Shown piece after piece: positions 25,991 through 42,363 of a DNA stretch of 42,363 nt; positions within the stretch are counted from its first letter, which is position 1; each line of letters starts with the position of its first letter. Made by a program: the position numbers and the translations under genes. Source of the stretch: Acetivibrio sp. (GTDB lineage Bacteria > Bacillota > Clostridia > Lachnospirales > Lachnospiraceae); contig JBGSNZ010000012.1 in the NCBI GenBank assembly GCA_041739345.1, positions 1-42,363 on the forward strand, written 5' to 3'. A model generated the notes under the pieces. It searched no databases, was not told where the DNA came from, and saw only the letters and a list, made by a program, of their open reading frames with translations.

Positions 25991-26330
25991 AATTCTGGGT
26001 TAACTACGAAGGACGGACGCGAGTTTTTGTTGATAAGTGACGCCAGGAAAGGCTGATCAATTTTTATACTTTTTACAATTTACACGGCTCCCATGCTAGG
26101 ATTTTATATCAATCGTATAAGCATTCCACGTAATCTCTGGACGTCGAAAAAATAGCTCTAAGGAGCTATTTTTTCGACAGAGTTTACGTTCCATATACTT
26201 TAATGATATAAAATCCTAGCATGGGAGCCGTGTAAATTATACTATAGATTTATGAGCTCAGCCTTTCATGGCTGACTACGAGATACGGACTCGCTGATTT
26301 TCTAGCGTTTTATAAACCAAAACTAGAATT
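25991..26330 (+). repeat. type-1 foldback/MITE-like repeat, copy A (long imperfect palindrome with AATTCTGG termini)
   Basis: Begins AATTCTGGGTT 4 bp after the ABC ATPase stop and ends ..AACCAAAACTAGAATT (inverted terminus). Internally a ~300-bp imperfect hairpin centred on GCTCTAAGGAGCTAT. About 85-90% identical to rc(29388-29722) and to 42021-42222. Confidence 0.8.
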
Positions 26331-26706
26331 AAGAGTGAAGTGGTAAAAAGTCAAAGGTAGTTGTCATGTGATACACGGTCTTTGACTTTTTACTGTAAAC
26401 ATTCCAAACAACAGCGGCACCATTTTTCAAAATCAGCAAAAAAGCGGTGCTTATAATCTTCCTAATTCGAATGGAGGGGATGGCCTGTCCTTTGCATCAT
26501 TTAGCATATGAGATGGAAACTCTATTGAAAAAGAAGCTCCAAAGAGCTTCTTTTTCAATGATTAGAGGTTCTATCGAATGCTTATGCGGTTGATGCTAAG
26601 GACAGGCCATCCCCTCCATTCGAATGTCGAAACCATAAAAGCACCGTTTTCTTGCGTGACTTTCCCAAAACACGACGCGTACGTCATGAACAGTTAAACC
26701 AGAATT
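26331..26706 (-). repeat. type-2 foldback repeat, copy B (inverted relative to copy C)
   Basis: Ends ..AAACCAGAATT (rc AATTCTGGTTT). Contains a near-perfect nested palindrome TTCGAATGGAGGGGATGGCCTGTCCTT...AAGGACAGGCCATCCCCTCCATTCGAA with core GAAAAAGAAGCTCCAAAGAGCTTCTTTTTC. rc(B) aligns with 28934-29387. Confidence 0.75.
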
Positions 26707-26716
26707 CTTGAAATTA

Positions 26717-28753
26717 CTAGATGCTTTCGTTCGGAGTTTCTTCTTCTATTTTAAGACCGTCATCCATTTTTTCTTCTGTTTCACTAGGTGCGTTTACATT
26801 ATTTTCTACAACTTCGTCCGTTTTAATTGTTACGCCGAATTTTTCAAGAGTGATAAACTTTAGAAGCGTATCTATTATAGTTCCACTTCCGCCATCTTTG
26901 TTGTCTCCCATATTTACTACGGTCTTTGGAACGATATCAACCTTAGCACTCTTGATTGCATCCGATAATTTTTCTGAAACATCCTGAATAACACGATATT
27001 CTGCTCCGCCATAAGCCTTAACCTGAGCATCAATTGCACGGGCCTTAGCTAAACCTACATTAGATTCCTTAGATGCTTCCGCTTCACCTTCTAAGGTAAT
27101 TTTTAAGGAATTAGCTTTTGCAAGAGCAACAATCTGATTTGCTTCCTGCTCCGCTTTACTTGCTAATGCAGCACCGCTATTACGTTCGATTTCAATCTGA
27201 ATCTTTGAATTAGTAAGGAAGCTTTGCTGTTCCGCAACTGCCTCAGCTTCGCGGAGGGATTTTTCACTTTCCGCTGCAGATTGTTGTTTCTGGTAGGTTA
27301 CTTTCTTTTCTTCCGCAATCTGTCTTTCGCGTAATTGCGTTAGGATATTCTCAATCTGCTTATCTTCTACCGGTGATTTCGGAGTACCGATTAATACTTC
27401 TTCTAATTGAAGATTATATTTCTGGAATTTATCCCTCATCTCACCAAGGGATTTTTCACGGATTTCACTACGTTCCTGAATAAGTTCAATTAAGGTTTTT
27501 GTCTGAGCTACATCTTTGAAATATGCACTAACAAGTGGGTCAAGGGATTGGTTAACCAGCATATTAATATCACCAAAACGTTGGATGACCCAAGGAGCCT
27601 GCTTGTAATCAATATGCATAACAACAGATAGCGGTAAGGATGGCTCAAATGCATCCTTTGTAATGATATCTACTTCGGTCAAATTTTCATCATATTTATG
27701 AGTTCCGACTTCAGATTTGTTCCATTTTAAGATGATGTTCGTAGTTGGAACAAGAACGACTTTACCTGCATCCGTATTAAATGCATATTTACCAGGCATC
27801 AAAGGTTTTTCTAATACGCCCTTGCAGCCTTGACCAACCAGCTCGCCGTGTTTATAATCAGCACCCGTTGTATCCACACCCTCCGTACCAAAGAAGGAAA
27901 CAACAACGCCCACGAAACCGATAGGAACAACAGTCTTTGGTCTGAATTCTATGGTAGCAAACAACCGGTTAATGTAATAGGTACCATCCGTTAATACTTG
28001 TAACTGCTTACCTCTTTTTCCGCCAATTTCCAAGAATTTTTCTGGGTCTTGGAAACTTGCATGTTCCGCGCCCATATCAGGGGCAATGATTTCGCCTTGT
28101 TCAAGAGACTGTCCATCATGAATCGTTACGATGCCCATCAAATCACTATCCTGACTATTATTTCCCATGATTACTACCGGTCGAAAAGCAGTTCTATTAT
28201 TTAATGTTTCTTGCATGCTAGCCAACTCTTGTCTTTCATGTACATTACCACCACTAATAGCTTTAATATCGTTAGGGGTGATTACAATAAATTGTGCTAA
28301 GTTAATTGCATATGTACCTTCACGTAAGATGCCTCTTTGTGGACCTCTTTGACCGCCAGACTGTAAGAATCCTTTAACATCTTGAAAATTATTAGCTTCT
28401 TTTACTACCTTGCCAAGTGTTTGTACCGGGTTAAGTGGATGCCCGTCTTTTGCAAATACATAGGCAATTTGTCCTTGGGGTACAGTAATTAGTGGATACC
28501 TATGAATTTTGTACATTAACACAGATTTAAAATGAATACCACCACGAAGAACGTCAGGCTCATAACCAGCTTCCCCATTTAATGCAATGATAGAATCTTT
28601 CAAAGAACCTTTCATACTCCACCATTTTTCTACTACAGCTACTTCATTTGAATTAATAATCCTTAATCCTAAAATCTGAAAGATTAGCAAATATAGCCCT
28701 AATAACACTCCTAGTCCAATCAAAATGATTGGTAACATTGAAATAATTTCCAT
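26717..28753 (-). CDS. floT: flotillin-family (SPFH/band-7) membrane protein, FloT-like
   Basis: 678 aa. N-terminal TM hairpin, SPFH domain, long Ala/Glu/Gln-rich coiled-coil 'flotillin' region (...AEEKKVTYQKQQSAAESEKSLREAEAVAEQQ...EQEANQIVALAKANS...) and acidic C-terminal tail. RBS AAGAGGGA 6 nt before the ATG. Confidence 0.85.
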   Translation of the reverse strand: MEIISMLPIILIGLGVLLGLYLLIFQILGLRIINSNEVAVVEKWWSMKGSLKDSIIALNGEAGYEPDVLRGGIHFKSVLMYKIHRYPLITVPQGQIAYVFAKDGHPLNPVQTLGKVVKEANNFQDVKGFLQSGGQRGPQRGILREGTYAINLAQFIVITPNDIKAISGGNVHERQELASMQETLNNRTAFRPVVIMGNNSQDSDLMGIVTIHDGQSLEQGEIIAPDMGAEHASFQDPEKFLEIGGKRGKQLQVLTDGTYYINRLFATIEFRPKTVVPIGFVGVVVSFFGTEGVDTTGADYKHGELVGQGCKGVLEKPLMPGKYAFNTDAGKVVLVPTTNIILKWNKSEVGTHKYDENLTEVDIITKDAFEPSLPLSVVMHIDYKQAPWVIQRFGDINMLVNQSLDPLVSAYFKDVAQTKTLIELIQERSEIREKSLGEMRDKFQKYNLQLEEVLIGTPKSPVEDKQIENILTQLRERQIAEEKKVTYQKQQSAAESEKSLREAEAVAEQQSFLTNSKIQIEIERNSGAALASKAEQEANQIVALAKANSLKITLEGEAEASKESNVGLAKARAIDAQVKAYGGAEYRVIQDVSEKLSDAIKSAKVDIVPKTVVNMGDNKDGGSGTIIDTLLKFITLEKFGVTIKTDEVVENNVNAPSETEEKMDDGLKIEEETPNESI

Positions 28754-28933
28754 TCGTTTTCCCTCTTTCTTTTATAAAGTCAACTATTTACACATAGGAT
28801 TGTGCAAAAGGTGCTCCCCTAGAAACGGAGGCTCCCTAATTCCTTTTGCATTCCTAATATATATAATATCACAGTTTATTACATTATGTTTAACTATATG
28901 AGATTTTTAATTGTTTTCAAGGCATAATGATTT

Positions 28934-29387
28934 AATTCTGGTTTTCCTACGCAGGACGGACGTGGGGGCTTTTGGAAAGTCACGCAGGATGAGCGGTGAG
29001 TATATGGTTTTCGAAATTCGAATAGAGCACCGGGGCTGGTCTTAAAATCAGACGCATTAACCACTCGGCAGAACCTCTAAGCAAGGCAGAATGAGCTCTT
29101 TGGGAGCTCATTCTGCCTTGCTTAGAGGTTCTACCTCATAATGCTAAAATGCTTTTAAGACCAGCCCCGGTGCTCCATTCGAACTAGTAAGACTATGACC
29201 ACTGCGCATTTTGCTGGTTTTTGGTAAACGCCTCGCTGTTGTCTGAAATGTTAAAGTAAATACTGGAATTTATACGAAGATAGTAGTAAAAAGAGCAGGT
29301 GATGCCGTTGTTATTTGGTAATTTGCAGAAAAGAATTATTTATATCTCACTGGGTTTGCTTTTGACATTTTACCGAATGCTCCCAAA
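28934..29387 (+). repeat. type-2 foldback repeat, copy C
   Basis: Starts AATTCTGGTTTTCCTACGCAGGACGGACG (same 5' module as copy A). Nested palindrome CGAATAGAGCACCGGGGCTGGTCTTAAAA...TTTTAAGACCAGCCCCGGTGCTCCATTCGAA with core CCTCTAAGCAAGGCAGAATGAGCTCTTTGGGAGCTCATTCTGCCTTGCTTAGAGG. The distal part is homologous to rc of B. Confidence 0.75.
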
Positions 29388-29722
29388 TTCTGGTTTTTAC
29401 TATATGAAACGATTGTAAACCAGCGAGTCCGTATTTCGTAATCAGCCACGAAAGGCTGAGCTCATAATCTATCATTCAATTTACACGGCTCCCAGGCTAG
29501 GATTTTATATCATTAGAGCATATGGAACGTAAACTCTATCAAAAATCGGCTCCCAAGAGCCAATTTTTCGATTGCTTAGAGGTTACGTGGAATGCTTATG
29601 CGACTGATATAAAATCTTAGCCTGGGAGCCGTGTAAATTGTATAAAGACAAAACTGCTCAGGCTTTCCTGGCGTCACTTATCAACAAAAACTCGCGTCCG
29701 TCCTTCATAGTTAAACCGAAAT
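29388..29722 (-). repeat. type-1 foldback repeat, copy D (inverted copy of A)
   Basis: rc(D) aligns base-for-base with A over ~335 bp with scattered substitutions and small indels. Confidence 0.8.
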
Positions 29723-29800
29723 CTAAATCTTTACTTTGAGATAAAAATTGCGTATAATAAAATTAAATTTAACGGTTTGTGAGTATAGGGAGGATGAAAT

Positions 29801-29953
29801 ATGGATAAGTTATTTAGTGACGACGATTTGGCTGATTTATTGGCAGAGCTTGATACTGAAAATAACAAGGTACCGATTGAAGATGATCCGGAAATGGAAG
29901 CTGCCCAAAGAAGATACACCGAAATTATTAGGAAGCACAAGGATGACAAGTAG
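29801..29953 (+). CDS. small acidic hypothetical protein (50 aa)
   Basis: ATG 6 nt after a strong GGGAGGA RBS. Clean 50-codon ORF MDKLFSDDDLADLLAELDTENNKVPIEDDPEMEAAQRRYTEIIRKHKDDK. Below the 60-aa cutoff of the ORF track. No family recognised. Confidence 0.35.
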   Translation: MDKLFSDDDLADLLAELDTENNKVPIEDDPEMEAAQRRYTEIIRKHKDDK

Positions 29954-29988
29954 GAAATGCGAGATAAGTTGGAAATTCGGGAAACTTC

Positions 29989-30017: not shown

Positions 30018-30064
30018 AGTGCGTATATATTCCGCTTATGGATATAAGTGGATTAAAATATTTA

Positions 30065-30326
30065 AAATGCATGGAAAAGAAGAGTAGTCTGATAGGTTAC
30101 ATTACAGAGAATCCCGGTAGCTGAGAAGGGATATGGAGAATGCAGATGAAGATGGTCTTGGAGCAGAGTAACTGAGGTGTTATGATAAGCTTAGGTTACG
30201 ACGGTAGCACCCGTTATCGTGCAGACTGTTATGCAGTCATGGAGGCTTTTGTCGCAAGGCAAGGCAAATTAAAGTGGTACCACGAGATTATAGCTCGTCT
30301 TTAAGAGATTAAAGACGAGTTTTTTG
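30065..30326 (+). promoter_or_regulatory. T-box riboswitch leader (Met specifier) controlling metG
   Basis: Conserved T-box sequence AAATTAAAGTGGTACCACGAG (30266-30286) overlapping the antiterminator. Terminator CTCGTCTTT-AAGAGATT-AAAGACGAG plus T6 (30293-30326). Stem-I region with GA motifs (AGAGTAG / ACAGAGAAT) and AUG triplets in the specifier region (GGAGAATGCAGATGAAGATGG). Confidence 0.75.
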
Positions 30327-30364: not shown

Positions 30365-32329
30365 ATGGAAAAGAAAACGTATTATTTAACAACAGCCATT
30401 GCCTATACTTCAGGCAAACCACATATTGGAAACACTTATGAGGCAGTACTTGCAGACAGTATTGTAAGATTTAAACGATATCAAGGATATGATGTTCGTT
30501 TTCAGACAGGAACAGACGAACATGGACAAAAAATTGAATTAAAGGCAGCAGAAGCCGGAATTACGCCAAAGGAATTTGTTGACCAGGTTGCAGGAGAGAT
30601 CAAAAGCATATGGGACTTAATGAATACCTCTTATGATCATTTCATTCGTACTACCGATAAAGATCATGAAAAACAGGTTCAGAAAATTTTCCGCAAATTA
30701 TATGAAAATGGCGATATTTATAAAGGATATTATGAAGGAATGTATTGTACTCCTTGTGAATCGTTCTTTACTTCTTCCCAGCTTGTCGATGGAAAATGTC
30801 CTGATTGCGGAAGAGAATGTCAGCCTGCAAAAGAGGAAGCGTATTTCTTAAAACTAAGTAAGTATACAGACCGTTTAATTGAGCATATTAATACACACCC
30901 AGAATTTATTCAGCCAGAATCTAGAAAGAATGAAATGATGAATAACTTCCTTTTACCAGGTCTTCAGGATTTGTGTGTCTCCAGAACGACCTTTAAATGG
31001 GGAATTCCGGTTGACTTTGATGACAAACATGTTGTATATGTATGGCTTGATGCACTTAGTAACTATATTACTGGGCTGGGTTTTGATGTGGATGGAAATA
31101 ATGATGCACTTTATAAAAATTTCTGGCCTGCTGATTTACACTTAATTGGAAAAGATATTCTTCGATTCCATACGATTTATTGGCCGATTATGTTAATGGC
31201 ACTTGAAATTCCATTACCAAAACAGATATTTGGTCATCCATGGTTACTTCAAGGTGATGGAAAGATGAGCAAATCCAAGGGCAATGTACTTTATGCAGAT
31301 GATCTTGTATCTATCTTTGGGGTAGATGCGGTTCGTTACTTTGTGCTTCATGAGATGCCATTCGAAAATGATGGTGTTATTACCTGGGAGCTCATGGTAG
31401 AGAGAATGAATTCTGACCTTGCAAATACCTTGGGAAACTTGGTAAATCGTACTATCTCTATGTCGAATAAATACTTTGACGGCATTGTAAATAATAGAAA
31501 TGTAAAAGAATCCGTGGATGATGAATTAATTCAGCTAACATTTGAAACACCAAAAAAAGTAGAAGAAAAGATGGAAAAACTTCGTATTTCTGATGCCATT
31601 TCCGAGATCTTTACCCTATTCAAACGTTGCAATAAATATATTGACGAAACAATGCCTTGGGCGCTTGCAAAAGAGGAGGAGAAGAAAGCACGTTTAGAAA
31701 CTGTACTATATAACTTGGTAGAAAGTATTAGTGTGGGAGCTAGCTTGCTAGAAAGCTTTATGCCAGAAACCTCTGCAAAGATTTTGACACAAATTAATGA
31801 TACAAAGAGAGAGTTAACAGCCATGGATGCATATGGAAAATATGTATCGGGTAGCAAAGTAGTGGAAAAACCAGAGATTCTATTTGCAAGACTTGATATG
31901 GAAGAAGTACTAAAACAAGTAGAAGAAATGAAAGCAAAGCAGACGAATAATAGCAAAGAGGTAGAGCCAGTGATGGAGCCGGGTATTGATATAGAAGCAA
32001 AAGCTGAAATTGAATATGATGATTTTATGAAAATGCAGTTTCAGGTAGGCGAAATTCTTGCGTGCGAGGAAGTTCCAAAGTCTAAGAAATTATTATGCTC
32101 TAAAGTACGCGTTGGAAGTGAAATAAAGCAAATTGTTTCAGGTATCAAACAGTACTATAGCGCAGAAGAAATGGTAGGAAAAAAGGTTATGGTTTTAGTT
32201 AACCTAAAACCTGCCAAATTGGCTGGGGTATTATCCGAAGGAATGCTTTTATGCGCAGAAGATGCAGATGGTAATTTAGCGCTTATGACACCGGAAAAGC
32301 CAATGCCTGCAGGAGCAGAAATTTGCTAA
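30365..32329 (+). CDS. metG: methionine--tRNA ligase (with C-terminal tRNA-binding EMAP/Trbp111 domain)
   Basis: Class I aaRS: HIGN (HIGH variant, PHIGNTYEA), KMSKS, Zn knuckle CTPCES...CPDCGREC. C-terminal OB-fold tRNA-binding domain. Confidence 0.95.
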   Translation: MEKKTYYLTTAIAYTSGKPHIGNTYEAVLADSIVRFKRYQGYDVRFQTGTDEHGQKIELKAAEAGITPKEFVDQVAGEIKSIWDLMNTSYDHFIRTTDKDHEKQVQKIFRKLYENGDIYKGYYEGMYCTPCESFFTSSQLVDGKCPDCGRECQPAKEEAYFLKLSKYTDRLIEHINTHPEFIQPESRKNEMMNNFLLPGLQDLCVSRTTFKWGIPVDFDDKHVVYVWLDALSNYITGLGFDVDGNNDALYKNFWPADLHLIGKDILRFHTIYWPIMLMALEIPLPKQIFGHPWLLQGDGKMSKSKGNVLYADDLVSIFGVDAVRYFVLHEMPFENDGVITWELMVERMNSDLANTLGNLVNRTISMSNKYFDGIVNNRNVKESVDDELIQLTFETPKKVEEKMEKLRISDAISEIFTLFKRCNKYIDETMPWALAKEEEKKARLETVLYNLVESISVGASLLESFMPETSAKILTQINDTKRELTAMDAYGKYVSGSKVVEKPEILFARLDMEEVLKQVEEMKAKQTNNSKEVEPVMEPGIDIEAKAEIEYDDFMKMQFQVGEILACEEVPKSKKLLCSKVRVGSEIKQIVSGIKQYYSAEEMVGKKVMVLVNLKPAKLAGVLSEGMLLCAEDADGNLALMTPEKPMPAGAEIC

Positions 32330-42007: not shown

Positions 42008-42020
42008 AATACGGATACTA

Positions 42021-42222
42021 AATTCTGGTGTAATGAATGACGGACGCGAGTCTTGGTTGTTAAGGGACGCCATAAAAGGCTGAGCATTTTTGTTTTCCGC
42101 CAATTTACACGGCTCCCATGGTGGGCTTTTATATCAATCGCATAGGAATTCCACGTAACCTCTAAGCAATCGAAAAATCGGTTCAAGGGAAGCCGATTTT
42201 TGATAGAGTTTGCGTTCCATAT
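42021..42222 (+). repeat. type-1 foldback repeat, copy E (truncated, lacks the distal right arm)
   Basis: AATTCTGGTG..GACGGACGCGAGT...GACGCC..AAAGGCTGAGC...CAATTTACACGGCTCCCATGG...TTTTATATCAATCGCATAGGAATTCCACGTAACCTCTAAGCAATCGAAAAATCGG..AGCCGATTTTTGATAGAGTTTGCGTTCCATATA is colinear with A and rc(D). Confidence 0.75.
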
Positions 42223-42284
42223 AAGGCTGCTGAAAAACTACTGTTTTTTATTGCTCTCAGCAAAGATAATTATCCCTAATAAAA

Positions 42285-42336: not shown

Positions 42337-42363
42337 ATATTTTTATGTTTTTTTGGTTCATTC

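Follow-up and report, generated by a model that had tools for sequence, protein, structure and literature searches.

What are the long palindromic repeats that occupy intergenic regions of a 42,363-nt contig of Acetivibrio sp. (JBGSNZ010000012.1, assembly GCA_041739345.1; "the window" hereafter means this whole stretch), and are they separate copies of a small mobile element or parts of something larger? An earlier note, made from the letters of the window, had described them as a dispersed family of palindromes resembling miniature inverted-repeat transposable elements (MITEs), present in at least five copies and bounded by the octamer AATTCTGG. The family is genuine: it is dispersed, palindromic and non-coding far beyond chance, and a related metagenome-assembled genome (MAG) carries it at no fewer than 10 loci with unrelated flanking genes, which disposes of the possibility of a purely local duplication. 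The five hairpin units are likewise real; they are, however, not independent. Units defined by repeat detection, pairwise alignment and profile searches belong to type 1 (T1; units A, D and E) or type 2 (T2; units B and C), and the two types are the halves of one composite repeat, of which the window holds two examples, inverted around one gene, plus one truncated copy. With a little more confidence than doubt, we favor the view that this composite is an old, lineage-restricted, non-autonomous foldback or MITE-like repeat whose halves are read as hairpins of the 3′ untranslated region (3′-UTR) by the genes that flank it.

Two hairpins joined in one composite

The features of the window that concern the repeats are listed below, with E-values from the T1 and T2 profile hidden Markov models (HMMs).

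25991-26330, + strand: unit A, T1 hairpin, left half of composite W_AB (T1 HMM, E 7e-105)
25991-26023: outer block of the terminal inverted repeat (TIR) of unit A, AATTCTGGGTTAACTACGAAGGACGGACGCGAG
26074-26111 and 26204-26241: long stem arms of unit A
26323-26330: inner inverted terminus of unit A, CTAGAATT
26331-26388: A-B spacer, with a terminator-like hairpin at about 26349-26387 (AGTCAAAGG...CTTTGACT) and a T-run on both strands
26389-26706, - strand: unit B, T2 hairpin, right half of W_AB (T2 HMM, E 1e-81)
26465-26499 and 26591-26625: long stem arms of unit B
26654-26706: outer TIR block of unit B
26717-28753, - strand: SPFH/Band 7 (flotillin/YqiK-like) gene, 678 aa (PF01145)
28934-29260, + strand: unit C, T2 hairpin, left half of composite W_CD (T2 HMM, E 2e-99)
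29004-29050 and 29150-29196: long stem arms of unit C, with an apical palindrome at 29067-29135
29261-29385: C-D spacer, in which the terminator-like hairpin is degenerate
29386-29726, - strand: unit D, T1 hairpin, right half of W_CD (T1 HMM, E 3e-111)
29474-29512 and 29605-29643: long stem arms of unit D
29716-29723: degenerate outer terminus of unit D, GATTTCGG
42008-42250, + strand: unit E, truncated T1 copy (T1 HMM positions 1-208, E 3e-52)
42008-42020: probable outer-module variant of unit E, AAATACGGATACTA
42021-42223: T1 5′ arm and apical hairpin of unit E, followed by a short GGCTGCTGAAAAACTACTG motif, the 3′ arm being missing

Units A and B converge on one side of the SPFH gene and units C and D on the other, W_AB and W_CD together forming one large inverted repeat around this single gene, which itself lies outside the repeat. 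The solo half-copy E stands shortly before the end of the contig at 42363, and nhmmer found no copies in the 42-kb window beyond these three element sites. The tail-to-tail arrangement of T1, spacer and T2 recurs as a unit: it is found in W_AB and W_CD and at loci L001, L002, L003, L005, L008 and L010, with homologous spacer sequences. Lengths of 716, 793, 863, 781, 906, 911 and 1251 nt were measured for composites and of 310-366 nt (typically about 320-340 nt) for single hairpin units, which have a GC content of 37-40%. The two types had previously been viewed as modular repeats that share a 5′ module and a core and differ elsewhere. Their HMMs, in fact, match each other over the full length (E 1e-16 to 1e-28), and T1 and T2 are thus diverged paralogues of one ancestral hairpin unit. 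Since the repeats recur in independent assemblies (Logan contigs L014 and L015, JGI contigs L016 and L011, and the MAG UBA5725), they are not an assembly artefact.

Every complete composite carries at both outer ends an imperfect TIR of at least 50 nt, (AAAGGGGnTGTCGCACTA)-AATTCTGG-TTTAACGG..GGACGGACGCG, the long TIR spanning GGGGnTGTCGCACTAAATTCTGG...GGACGGACGCG, and each half has in addition an inner inverted copy of the terminus. The inverted termini proposed earlier are therefore present, and the shared 5′ module seen in both types exists as described; it is now understood as the TIR of the composite. The octamer itself is not the terminus of the element. Rather, it is an internal block of the TIR, outside of which several copies carry a further module of 13-18 nt. 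Seven MAG termini bear this outer module in the form AAAGGGGnTGTCGCACTA, including both ends of L005, L007 and L010, where the two are inverted. Unit E and L011 have in common a 13-nt outer variant that differs from AAAGGGGnTGTCGCACTA, next to genes that are not orthologous; L011 was rejected as an orthologue of site E, the adjacent TetR-family proteins having no detectable similarity, and the shared 13 nt outside AATTCTGG are better read as a probable variant of the outer module.

The octamer occurs six times in the window against 2.2 expected. Five exact matches fall at units, at 25991 (+), 26699-26706 (-), 28934 (+), 29386 (+) and 42021 (+), and the sixth, at 30899 (-), lies within the metG coding sequence and is unrelated to the repeats. 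Of the boundaries first proposed, these five sites stand, the one placed at 29388 with its start moved to 29386; the reverse-complement copy at 26323-26330 is a 7/8 match, and the degenerate one near 29714-29723 reads as given in the list. The longer module AATTCTGG-N(8-15)-GACGNACGYG-N(11-14)-AAGNNACGC has four matches in the window, where shuffled sequences lead one to expect none.

Shortened and expanded copies also occur. L007 is an internally deleted derivative of 484 nt that has kept both outer TIRs, L004 and L009 are partial copies, and the spacer of the L003 composite contains a very AT-rich insert of about 560 nt (L003:3364-3927) with a 96-codon open reading frame (ORF) that has no Pfam match. 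An extra motif, GGCTGCTGAAAAACTACTG(N)TTTTT, recurs in T1 at a fixed place, directly following GAGTTTACG(TTCCATAT), in either orientation or as a small palindrome (window 42226-42250; a 31-nt insert in the T1 of L003, alignment columns 205-235; L007 at about 1106-1140), and is possibly a nested mini-module. No ORF is conserved among the elements, the longest ones (43-54 codons) keeping neither their position nor their frame from copy to copy, and a hidden small protein was accordingly rejected.

Folding, strand asymmetry and dispersal

Each full unit folds as one long hairpin, with a predicted free energy of -143.8 kcal/mol for unit A (z -18) and -160.7 kcal/mol for unit B (z -13). In T2, 32 of 108 pairs were changed on both sides, compared to 11.4 ± 2.3 in shuffles (0/500) and 6-11 with slid partners; in T1, the corresponding figures were 14 of 100 pairs, 7.5 ± 1.8 (0/500) and 1-4. 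Hardly any sequence variation is seen in the long helix of T1, where 31 of 45 pairs are the same in all copies; in that of T2, 16 of 35 pairs are compensated. The hairpins are thus maintained by compensatory changes. An apical GCUC-UUAnGG-GAGC loop and an asymmetric internal loop (5′ ..GCAUAAGCAUUCCACGUAACCUCUA.. opposite 3′ ..UAGAGUUUACGUUCCAUAUGCU..) are conserved and common to both types. No Rfam 15 family reached its gathering score in the element regions, and a known RNA family was rejected, the only models at E up to 10 being eukaryotic miRNA hairpins, all far below threshold.

The two strands of the hairpins are not equivalent. Read from the outer TIR inwards, which we call the sense strand, all 17 units form more G·U pairs than on the complementary strand (66 versus 19 in total for T1, 128 versus 30 for T2), and in all 17 the sense strand folds at least as stably as its complement. 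G·U is the majority pair in 12 alignment columns on the sense strand versus two on the antisense strand. Such an asymmetry points to a single-stranded form, either RNA or single-stranded DNA (ssDNA), or to transcription-associated mutation; recognition of double-stranded TIRs would not yield it.

The family is confined to a very narrow Lachnoclostridium-like clade. A scan of 185,579 species genomes, a collection that does not include the window genome itself, returned the strict TIR pattern from one genome only, the MAG Lachnoclostridium sp. UBA5725, where it occurs at 10 loci on eight contigs. A metagenome scan added one genuine copy, L011; two other matches, L012 and L013, were rejected as chance occurrences in high-GC DNA. 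Whole composites and the consensus TIR gave nothing meaningful by blastn in plasmid and phage collections (best E-value of the consensus TIR against 72,556 plasmids, 6), and a phage or plasmid origin was rejected on these grounds. A pattern match in the viral contig L025, the one match from three scans of viral contigs, was attributed to chance, as it lies inside a 672-codon ORF with no nhmmer match and no inverted partner. The genes beside the elements are unrelated to one another and include GerA, MarR, RpiB, a LytTR regulator, a signal peptidase, a uridine kinase, SelO, PGM, an FGGY kinase and TetR.

At most sites, the element ends about 15 nt or less from a stop codon. The distances of 4 nt to the stop of the ABC ATPase gene, whose last position is 25986 (unit A), and 13 nt to that of tetR, both reported earlier, are correct, and unit B begins 10 nt from the SPFH stop codon; without the elements, two convergent stop codons would be 14 nt apart. 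Genes read into the sense half at W_AB (from both sides), E, L003, L005, L007, L010 and L011. No conserved promoter (sigma-70-like site) was detected in or upstream of the units.

Copies are old and about 85% identical to each other. At the orthologous SPFH site, T2 of the window and of the MAG are 78% identical, against 62.6% at the four-fold degenerate sites of the SPFH gene. Identity is 82-88% for every pair of T1 units, from one genome or from both, and the copies do not cluster by genome. Over long spans, therefore, the elements evolve more slowly than four-fold synonymous sites. The MAG SPFH orthologue (L006) is 85% identical to the window gene at the nucleotide level, and the T2 unit upstream of its start codon lies at 181 nt, versus 180 nt in the window; at least one insertion thus predates the split between the window genome and UBA5725. 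More distant relatives, with 81-84% amino acid identity in the SPFH protein, have short intergenic regions, different neighboring genes and no elements, for which reason the elements were rejected as an intrinsic feature of SPFH genes. Two further ideas about this gene were also set aside: the short contigs of SPFH homologues did not turn out to indicate that further taxa have repeats beside the gene, and the SPFH-TetR adjacency in relatives was rejected as an indication of repeat-mediated rearrangement, the TetR proteins not being orthologous.

In the MAG, the SPFH gene keeps a GC-rich terminator-like hairpin (GAACCGAATCGCG...GCGATTTGGTTC; L006:92-167) between its stop codon and a 36-nt solo TIR remnant. 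This hairpin is missing from the window, where the element starts 10 nt past the stop. Two element sites adjoin SPFH/Band 7 genes, encoding a 289-aa protein in the MAG (L007:1369-2238) and the 678-aa protein of the window, an adjacency that may be coincidental.

The remainder of the window is a housekeeping region with carAB, holB, rsmI, metG, tatD and a penicillin-binding protein gene. The contig starts with the 3′ end of a 23S rRNA (1-133) and seven tRNA genes (220-902); no 5S rRNA was detected between the 23S end and the tRNAs or just after them (1-902). A canonical T-box leader (30063-30305, 114 bits) precedes the methionyl-tRNA synthetase gene (30365-32329), and between unit D and this leader lies a short ORF (29802-29954, about 50 codons) that has a good ribosome-binding site.

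Explanations for the repeat

In the explanation that we favor, the element would have spread to many intergenic sites in the ancestor of a small Lachnoclostridium-like clade. Spread by transposition is something we infer, neither a transposase nor a target-site duplication (TSD) having been found. The composite being symmetric, a transcript entering from either flank would read the sense half first, from the outer TIR inwards, and the RNA of this half is predicted to form a very long hairpin, beyond which the transcript would, in several copies, run into the terminator-like hairpin of the spacer. In W_AB and L008, that spacer hairpin (AAAAAGTCAAAGG...CTTTGACTTTTT) has the features of a terminator whichever way it is read, and in L010 and L002 it has them in one direction; homologues of the W_AB version are present in the MAG composites L008 and L010 and degenerate in others. 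The element may in this manner act as a two-sided 3′-end module that affects the structure, stability or termination of 3′-UTRs, as has been proposed for ERIC, bcr1 and Correia repeats, its hairpins being kept intact by selection on the single-stranded sense form and by gene conversion among copies and between arms.

A number of observations count against this explanation, and we gather them here and in the two paragraphs that follow. On the side of mobility, no transposase or recombinase gene is encoded in the window or adjoins any MAG copy (about 75 kb of MAG loci). The autonomous element with the same ends that had been suggested earlier did not materialize, as no cognate insertion sequence (IS) with matching TIRs was found in the window, the MAG loci, the plasmid and phage collections or the three viral-contig scans. 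Nor was the suggested TAA/TTAA duplication seen. At boundary offsets of 0-24 nt, the flanks share repeats of at most 4-5 nt and four composites share none, in copies that are old and of uncertain true boundary; repeats of 5 nt or more turn up in about 15% of trials with random pairs of flanks, and TSDs of TA, TAA, TTAA and 5 bp, like those of any other length, do not rise above chance. No empty site came to light, all three comparable units being in place in L016, a contig from a 97%-identical relative; with no presence/absence polymorphism, the dispersed distribution is what speaks for mobility.

On the side of transcription, the role in RNA is suggested by the G·U asymmetry and the orientation of the flanking genes, and C-to-T mutation associated with transcription, or a strand-specific ssDNA hairpin, would be expected to leave an equivalent G·T bias. 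The genes on either side of W_CD are divergent, and neither reads into it. The terminator-like hairpin of the spacer is degenerate, replaced or absent in three of seven composites (W_CD, L005 and L003), and the U-tract of the apical hairpin is not conserved. The central hairpin was in fact rejected as a conserved intrinsic terminator, since in the MAG its A/U tracts are replaced by covarying G/C pairs and many copies of the family have no U-tail; a simple terminator scan likewise failed to pick out the central hairpins consistently.

The remaining difficulties concern the short-term behavior of the palindromes. Compared to L016, the elements are 93-94% identical and four-fold sites 95.5%. Both T2 hairpins of L016 are devoid of their central 125-220 nt within collinear flanks (L016:1383-1435, corresponding to window 28934-29260, with the centre of unit C at 28987-29204 deleted; and L016:3663-3864, corresponding to window 26389-26706), one junction showing a 4-nt overlap. 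These losses could be real palindrome excision or assembly collapse, which are indistinguishable here. As the elements diverge from L016 as fast as four-fold sites and both T2 centres are deleted there, short-term constraint is weak. Unit D, which is 93% identical to its L016 orthologue, differs from it at 24 positions that include two adjacent, fully compensatory pair swaps, and some of the differences form clusters that agree with what other copies carry at these positions. Such clusters, and pair swaps already compensated when so little divergence has accrued, argue for DNA-level conversion or arm-to-arm correction. Finally, some 165 nt of the T2 centre of L008 (L008:1159-1323) are inverted relative to all other copies, being 82% identical to them in reverse between forward flanks, likely as the result of a flip by recombination between hairpin arms.

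These last findings are what one would expect if the repeats were purely selfish or neutral palindromic DNA, relics of a foldback or MITE burst with neither RNA nor host function, an explanation that we regard as possible, if doubtful. The arms would then be kept complementary by template switching inside quasi-palindromes, arm-to-arm conversion and gene conversion from copy to copy, and the positions next to stop codons would be tolerated insertions. The swaps and patches that separate unit D from its L016 orthologue at about 5% neutral divergence agree with it, as do the deletion of both T2 centres in so close a relative, the inverted centre of L008, a short-term divergence equal to or above that of four-fold sites, the persistence of truncated copies (E, L007, L009 and L004) and the lack of any Rfam match. 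Neutral DNA, however, offers no strand-specific cause for a one-strand G·U excess in 17 of 17 units. Nor does it readily explain why copies from two species are 82-88% identical when four-fold sites are at 63% and at least one insertion is orthologous, because conversion within a genome cannot hold copies in different species together, or why compact intergenic regions have kept DNA of 700 nt or more from a time before the two species separated.

The opposite position, that the hairpins have become domesticated structured 3′-UTR RNAs of about 330 nt whose internal and apical loops are recognized by a specific protein or guide processing by RNase III, strikes us as unlikely. If it were true, the T1/T2 composite would be a dedicated two-sided transcript-end or insulator module and not a passive transposon relic.

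The strand asymmetry could also be that of an ssDNA hairpin. The units might serve as strand-specific substrates of an HUH/Y1-type enzyme (IS200/IS605 or RAYT-like) or another ssDNA-acting enzyme encoded elsewhere, and would in that event be giant REPIN/BIME-like doublets. G·T tolerance on one strand of each unit, the inverted doublet with a spacer, the missing TSD (as expected for IS200/IS605-type insertion) and a structure conserved by covariation would all fit. We nonetheless hold this to be quite improbable: REP and IS200/IS605 hairpins have only about a tenth of the length of these units, the favored strands of the two units are opposite when IS200/IS605 ends fold on the same strand, the elements have long conventional TIRs, which the REP and IS200/IS605 families lack, and no RAYT or TnpA gene is present in the available sequence (the window and the MAG loci, the host genome being incomplete).

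Slightly less probable still is that the repeats are not mobile relics at all but paralogous genes for free-standing structured non-coding RNAs, or a new class of cis-regulatory RNA. Strong covariation, strand asymmetry, the loops conserved in T1 and T2, the nearly invariant long helix of T1 and long-term conservation above that of four-fold sites all speak for it. Against it stand the want of a conserved promoter within the units or ahead of them, nearly perfect helices (35-47 bp), TIRs and TIR-keeping internal deletions, all typical of mobile DNA and not of RNA genes, centres that are freely lost in a close relative, an extremely narrow taxonomic range and, again, no match in Rfam.

Least credible of all is a purely local structure in which the paired inverted repeats make the SPFH gene a composite-transposon-like or invertible cassette, comparable to a unit flanked by IMU copies. 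For it speak the inversion of W_AB and W_CD around a single gene, the element ends on both sides of the MAG orthologue L006, SPFH neighborhoods that differ among more distant relatives, and the 14 nt to which the elements' removal would reduce the distance between the convergent stop codons. Most MAG copies, however, are single composites beside unrelated genes and make the family independent of any cassette. Around 25991-29726, no direct repeat is better than a 5-mer at unequal offsets, which is within chance, the orientation is the same in L016, and the arms of the two composites are only 71-86% identical.

Relation to known repeat families

Intergenic repeats are well catalogued in proteobacteria, bacilli and streptococci and hardly so in the Lachnospiraceae; no prior description of this family was found in the literature on Clostridia or Lachnospiraceae, where only general reviews were useful. 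Lachnospiraceae genomes, it now appears, can hold very large double-hairpin repeats of 0.7-1.25 kb that fill whole intergenic regions beside stop codons. These repeats generate strain-level deletions and inversions and fragment short-read (de Bruijn) assemblies exactly at palindrome centres: Logan contigs L014 and L015, which come from the same organism as the window, end precisely at the centres of B and C (window 26544, and 29061/29084), and this accounts for the contigs of 2.5 kb in which the SPFH gene is found. Should the sense-strand hairpins shape mRNA 3′ ends, the composite would be a natural two-sided terminator or stabilizer module; should they have no role in mRNA, it would be a clean case of long-palindrome complementarity kept by conversion or selection. 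Either way, the practical value lies in the annotation and assembly of these MAGs, and no new biological principle is involved.

MITEs are recognized by their TIRs, TSDs, small size (generally less than 200 bp, some about 400 bp), lack of a transposase and the long stem-loops into which their RNA folds (PMC3184786). The description of our repeats as MITE-like, put forward in the earlier note, holds for their TIRs, their non-coding and transposase-free nature, their dispersed copies and their folding. It does not hold for TSDs, size or presence/absence polymorphism. Like ERIC of the Enterobacteriaceae, bcr1 of the Bacillus cereus group, Correia/NEMIS of Neisseria and RUP of the pneumococcus, they are non-coding, multi-copy and intergenic, often near gene ends, with TIRs, a predicted long stem-loop and internally deleted derivatives. 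The compensatory base-pair changes reported for bcr1 (PMC3184786) are also present here, T1 and T2 exceeding all shuffles and slid controls. Unlike these four families, the repeats of the window are much larger (units of 310-366 nt, composites of 716-1251 nt), consist of two paralogous hairpins tail-to-tail, and have no TSD, no cognate IS in the sequence searched and no demonstrable sequence similarity to any of them.

In the IMU-integron, too, two repeat copies flank one cargo gene, as W_AB and W_CD do the SPFH gene at 26717-28753, but the IMU copies are near-identical, with a 5-bp TSD and a known ISSod9-like transposase (PMC3184786), whereas those of the window are inverted and 71-86% identical, with neither a significant TSD nor evidence of cassette movement. 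PATEs, which derive from IS200/IS605, were rejected as relatives, since PATEs have no TIRs and carry subterminal hairpins on the same strand, whereas our repeats have TIRs and favor opposite strands in T1 and T2. Miniature elements derived from Tn3 (TIMEs) have an inverted repeat of about 38 bp that starts with GGGG and a 5-bp TSD. The outer module of the present family starts with GGGG in MAG copies only, and TIMEs were likewise rejected, there being no 5-bp TSD and no similarity to plasmid-borne ends.

With REPINs and BIMEs, the composites share the two inverted, related palindromes with a variable spacer, an extragenic position at 3′ ends, the lack of a TSD and proposed roles in termination and mRNA stability. 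REP units, however, are about 20-40 nt long and GC-rich, whereas those of the window measure 310-366 nt at 37-40% GC and have long conventional TIRs. Thus, the family most resembles ERIC and bcr1-type repeats in its behavior and REP doublets or BIMEs, with units about ten times longer, in its architecture; it is an uncatalogued and unusually large composite variant of the intergenic palindromic repeats of bacteria and not a new kind of system.

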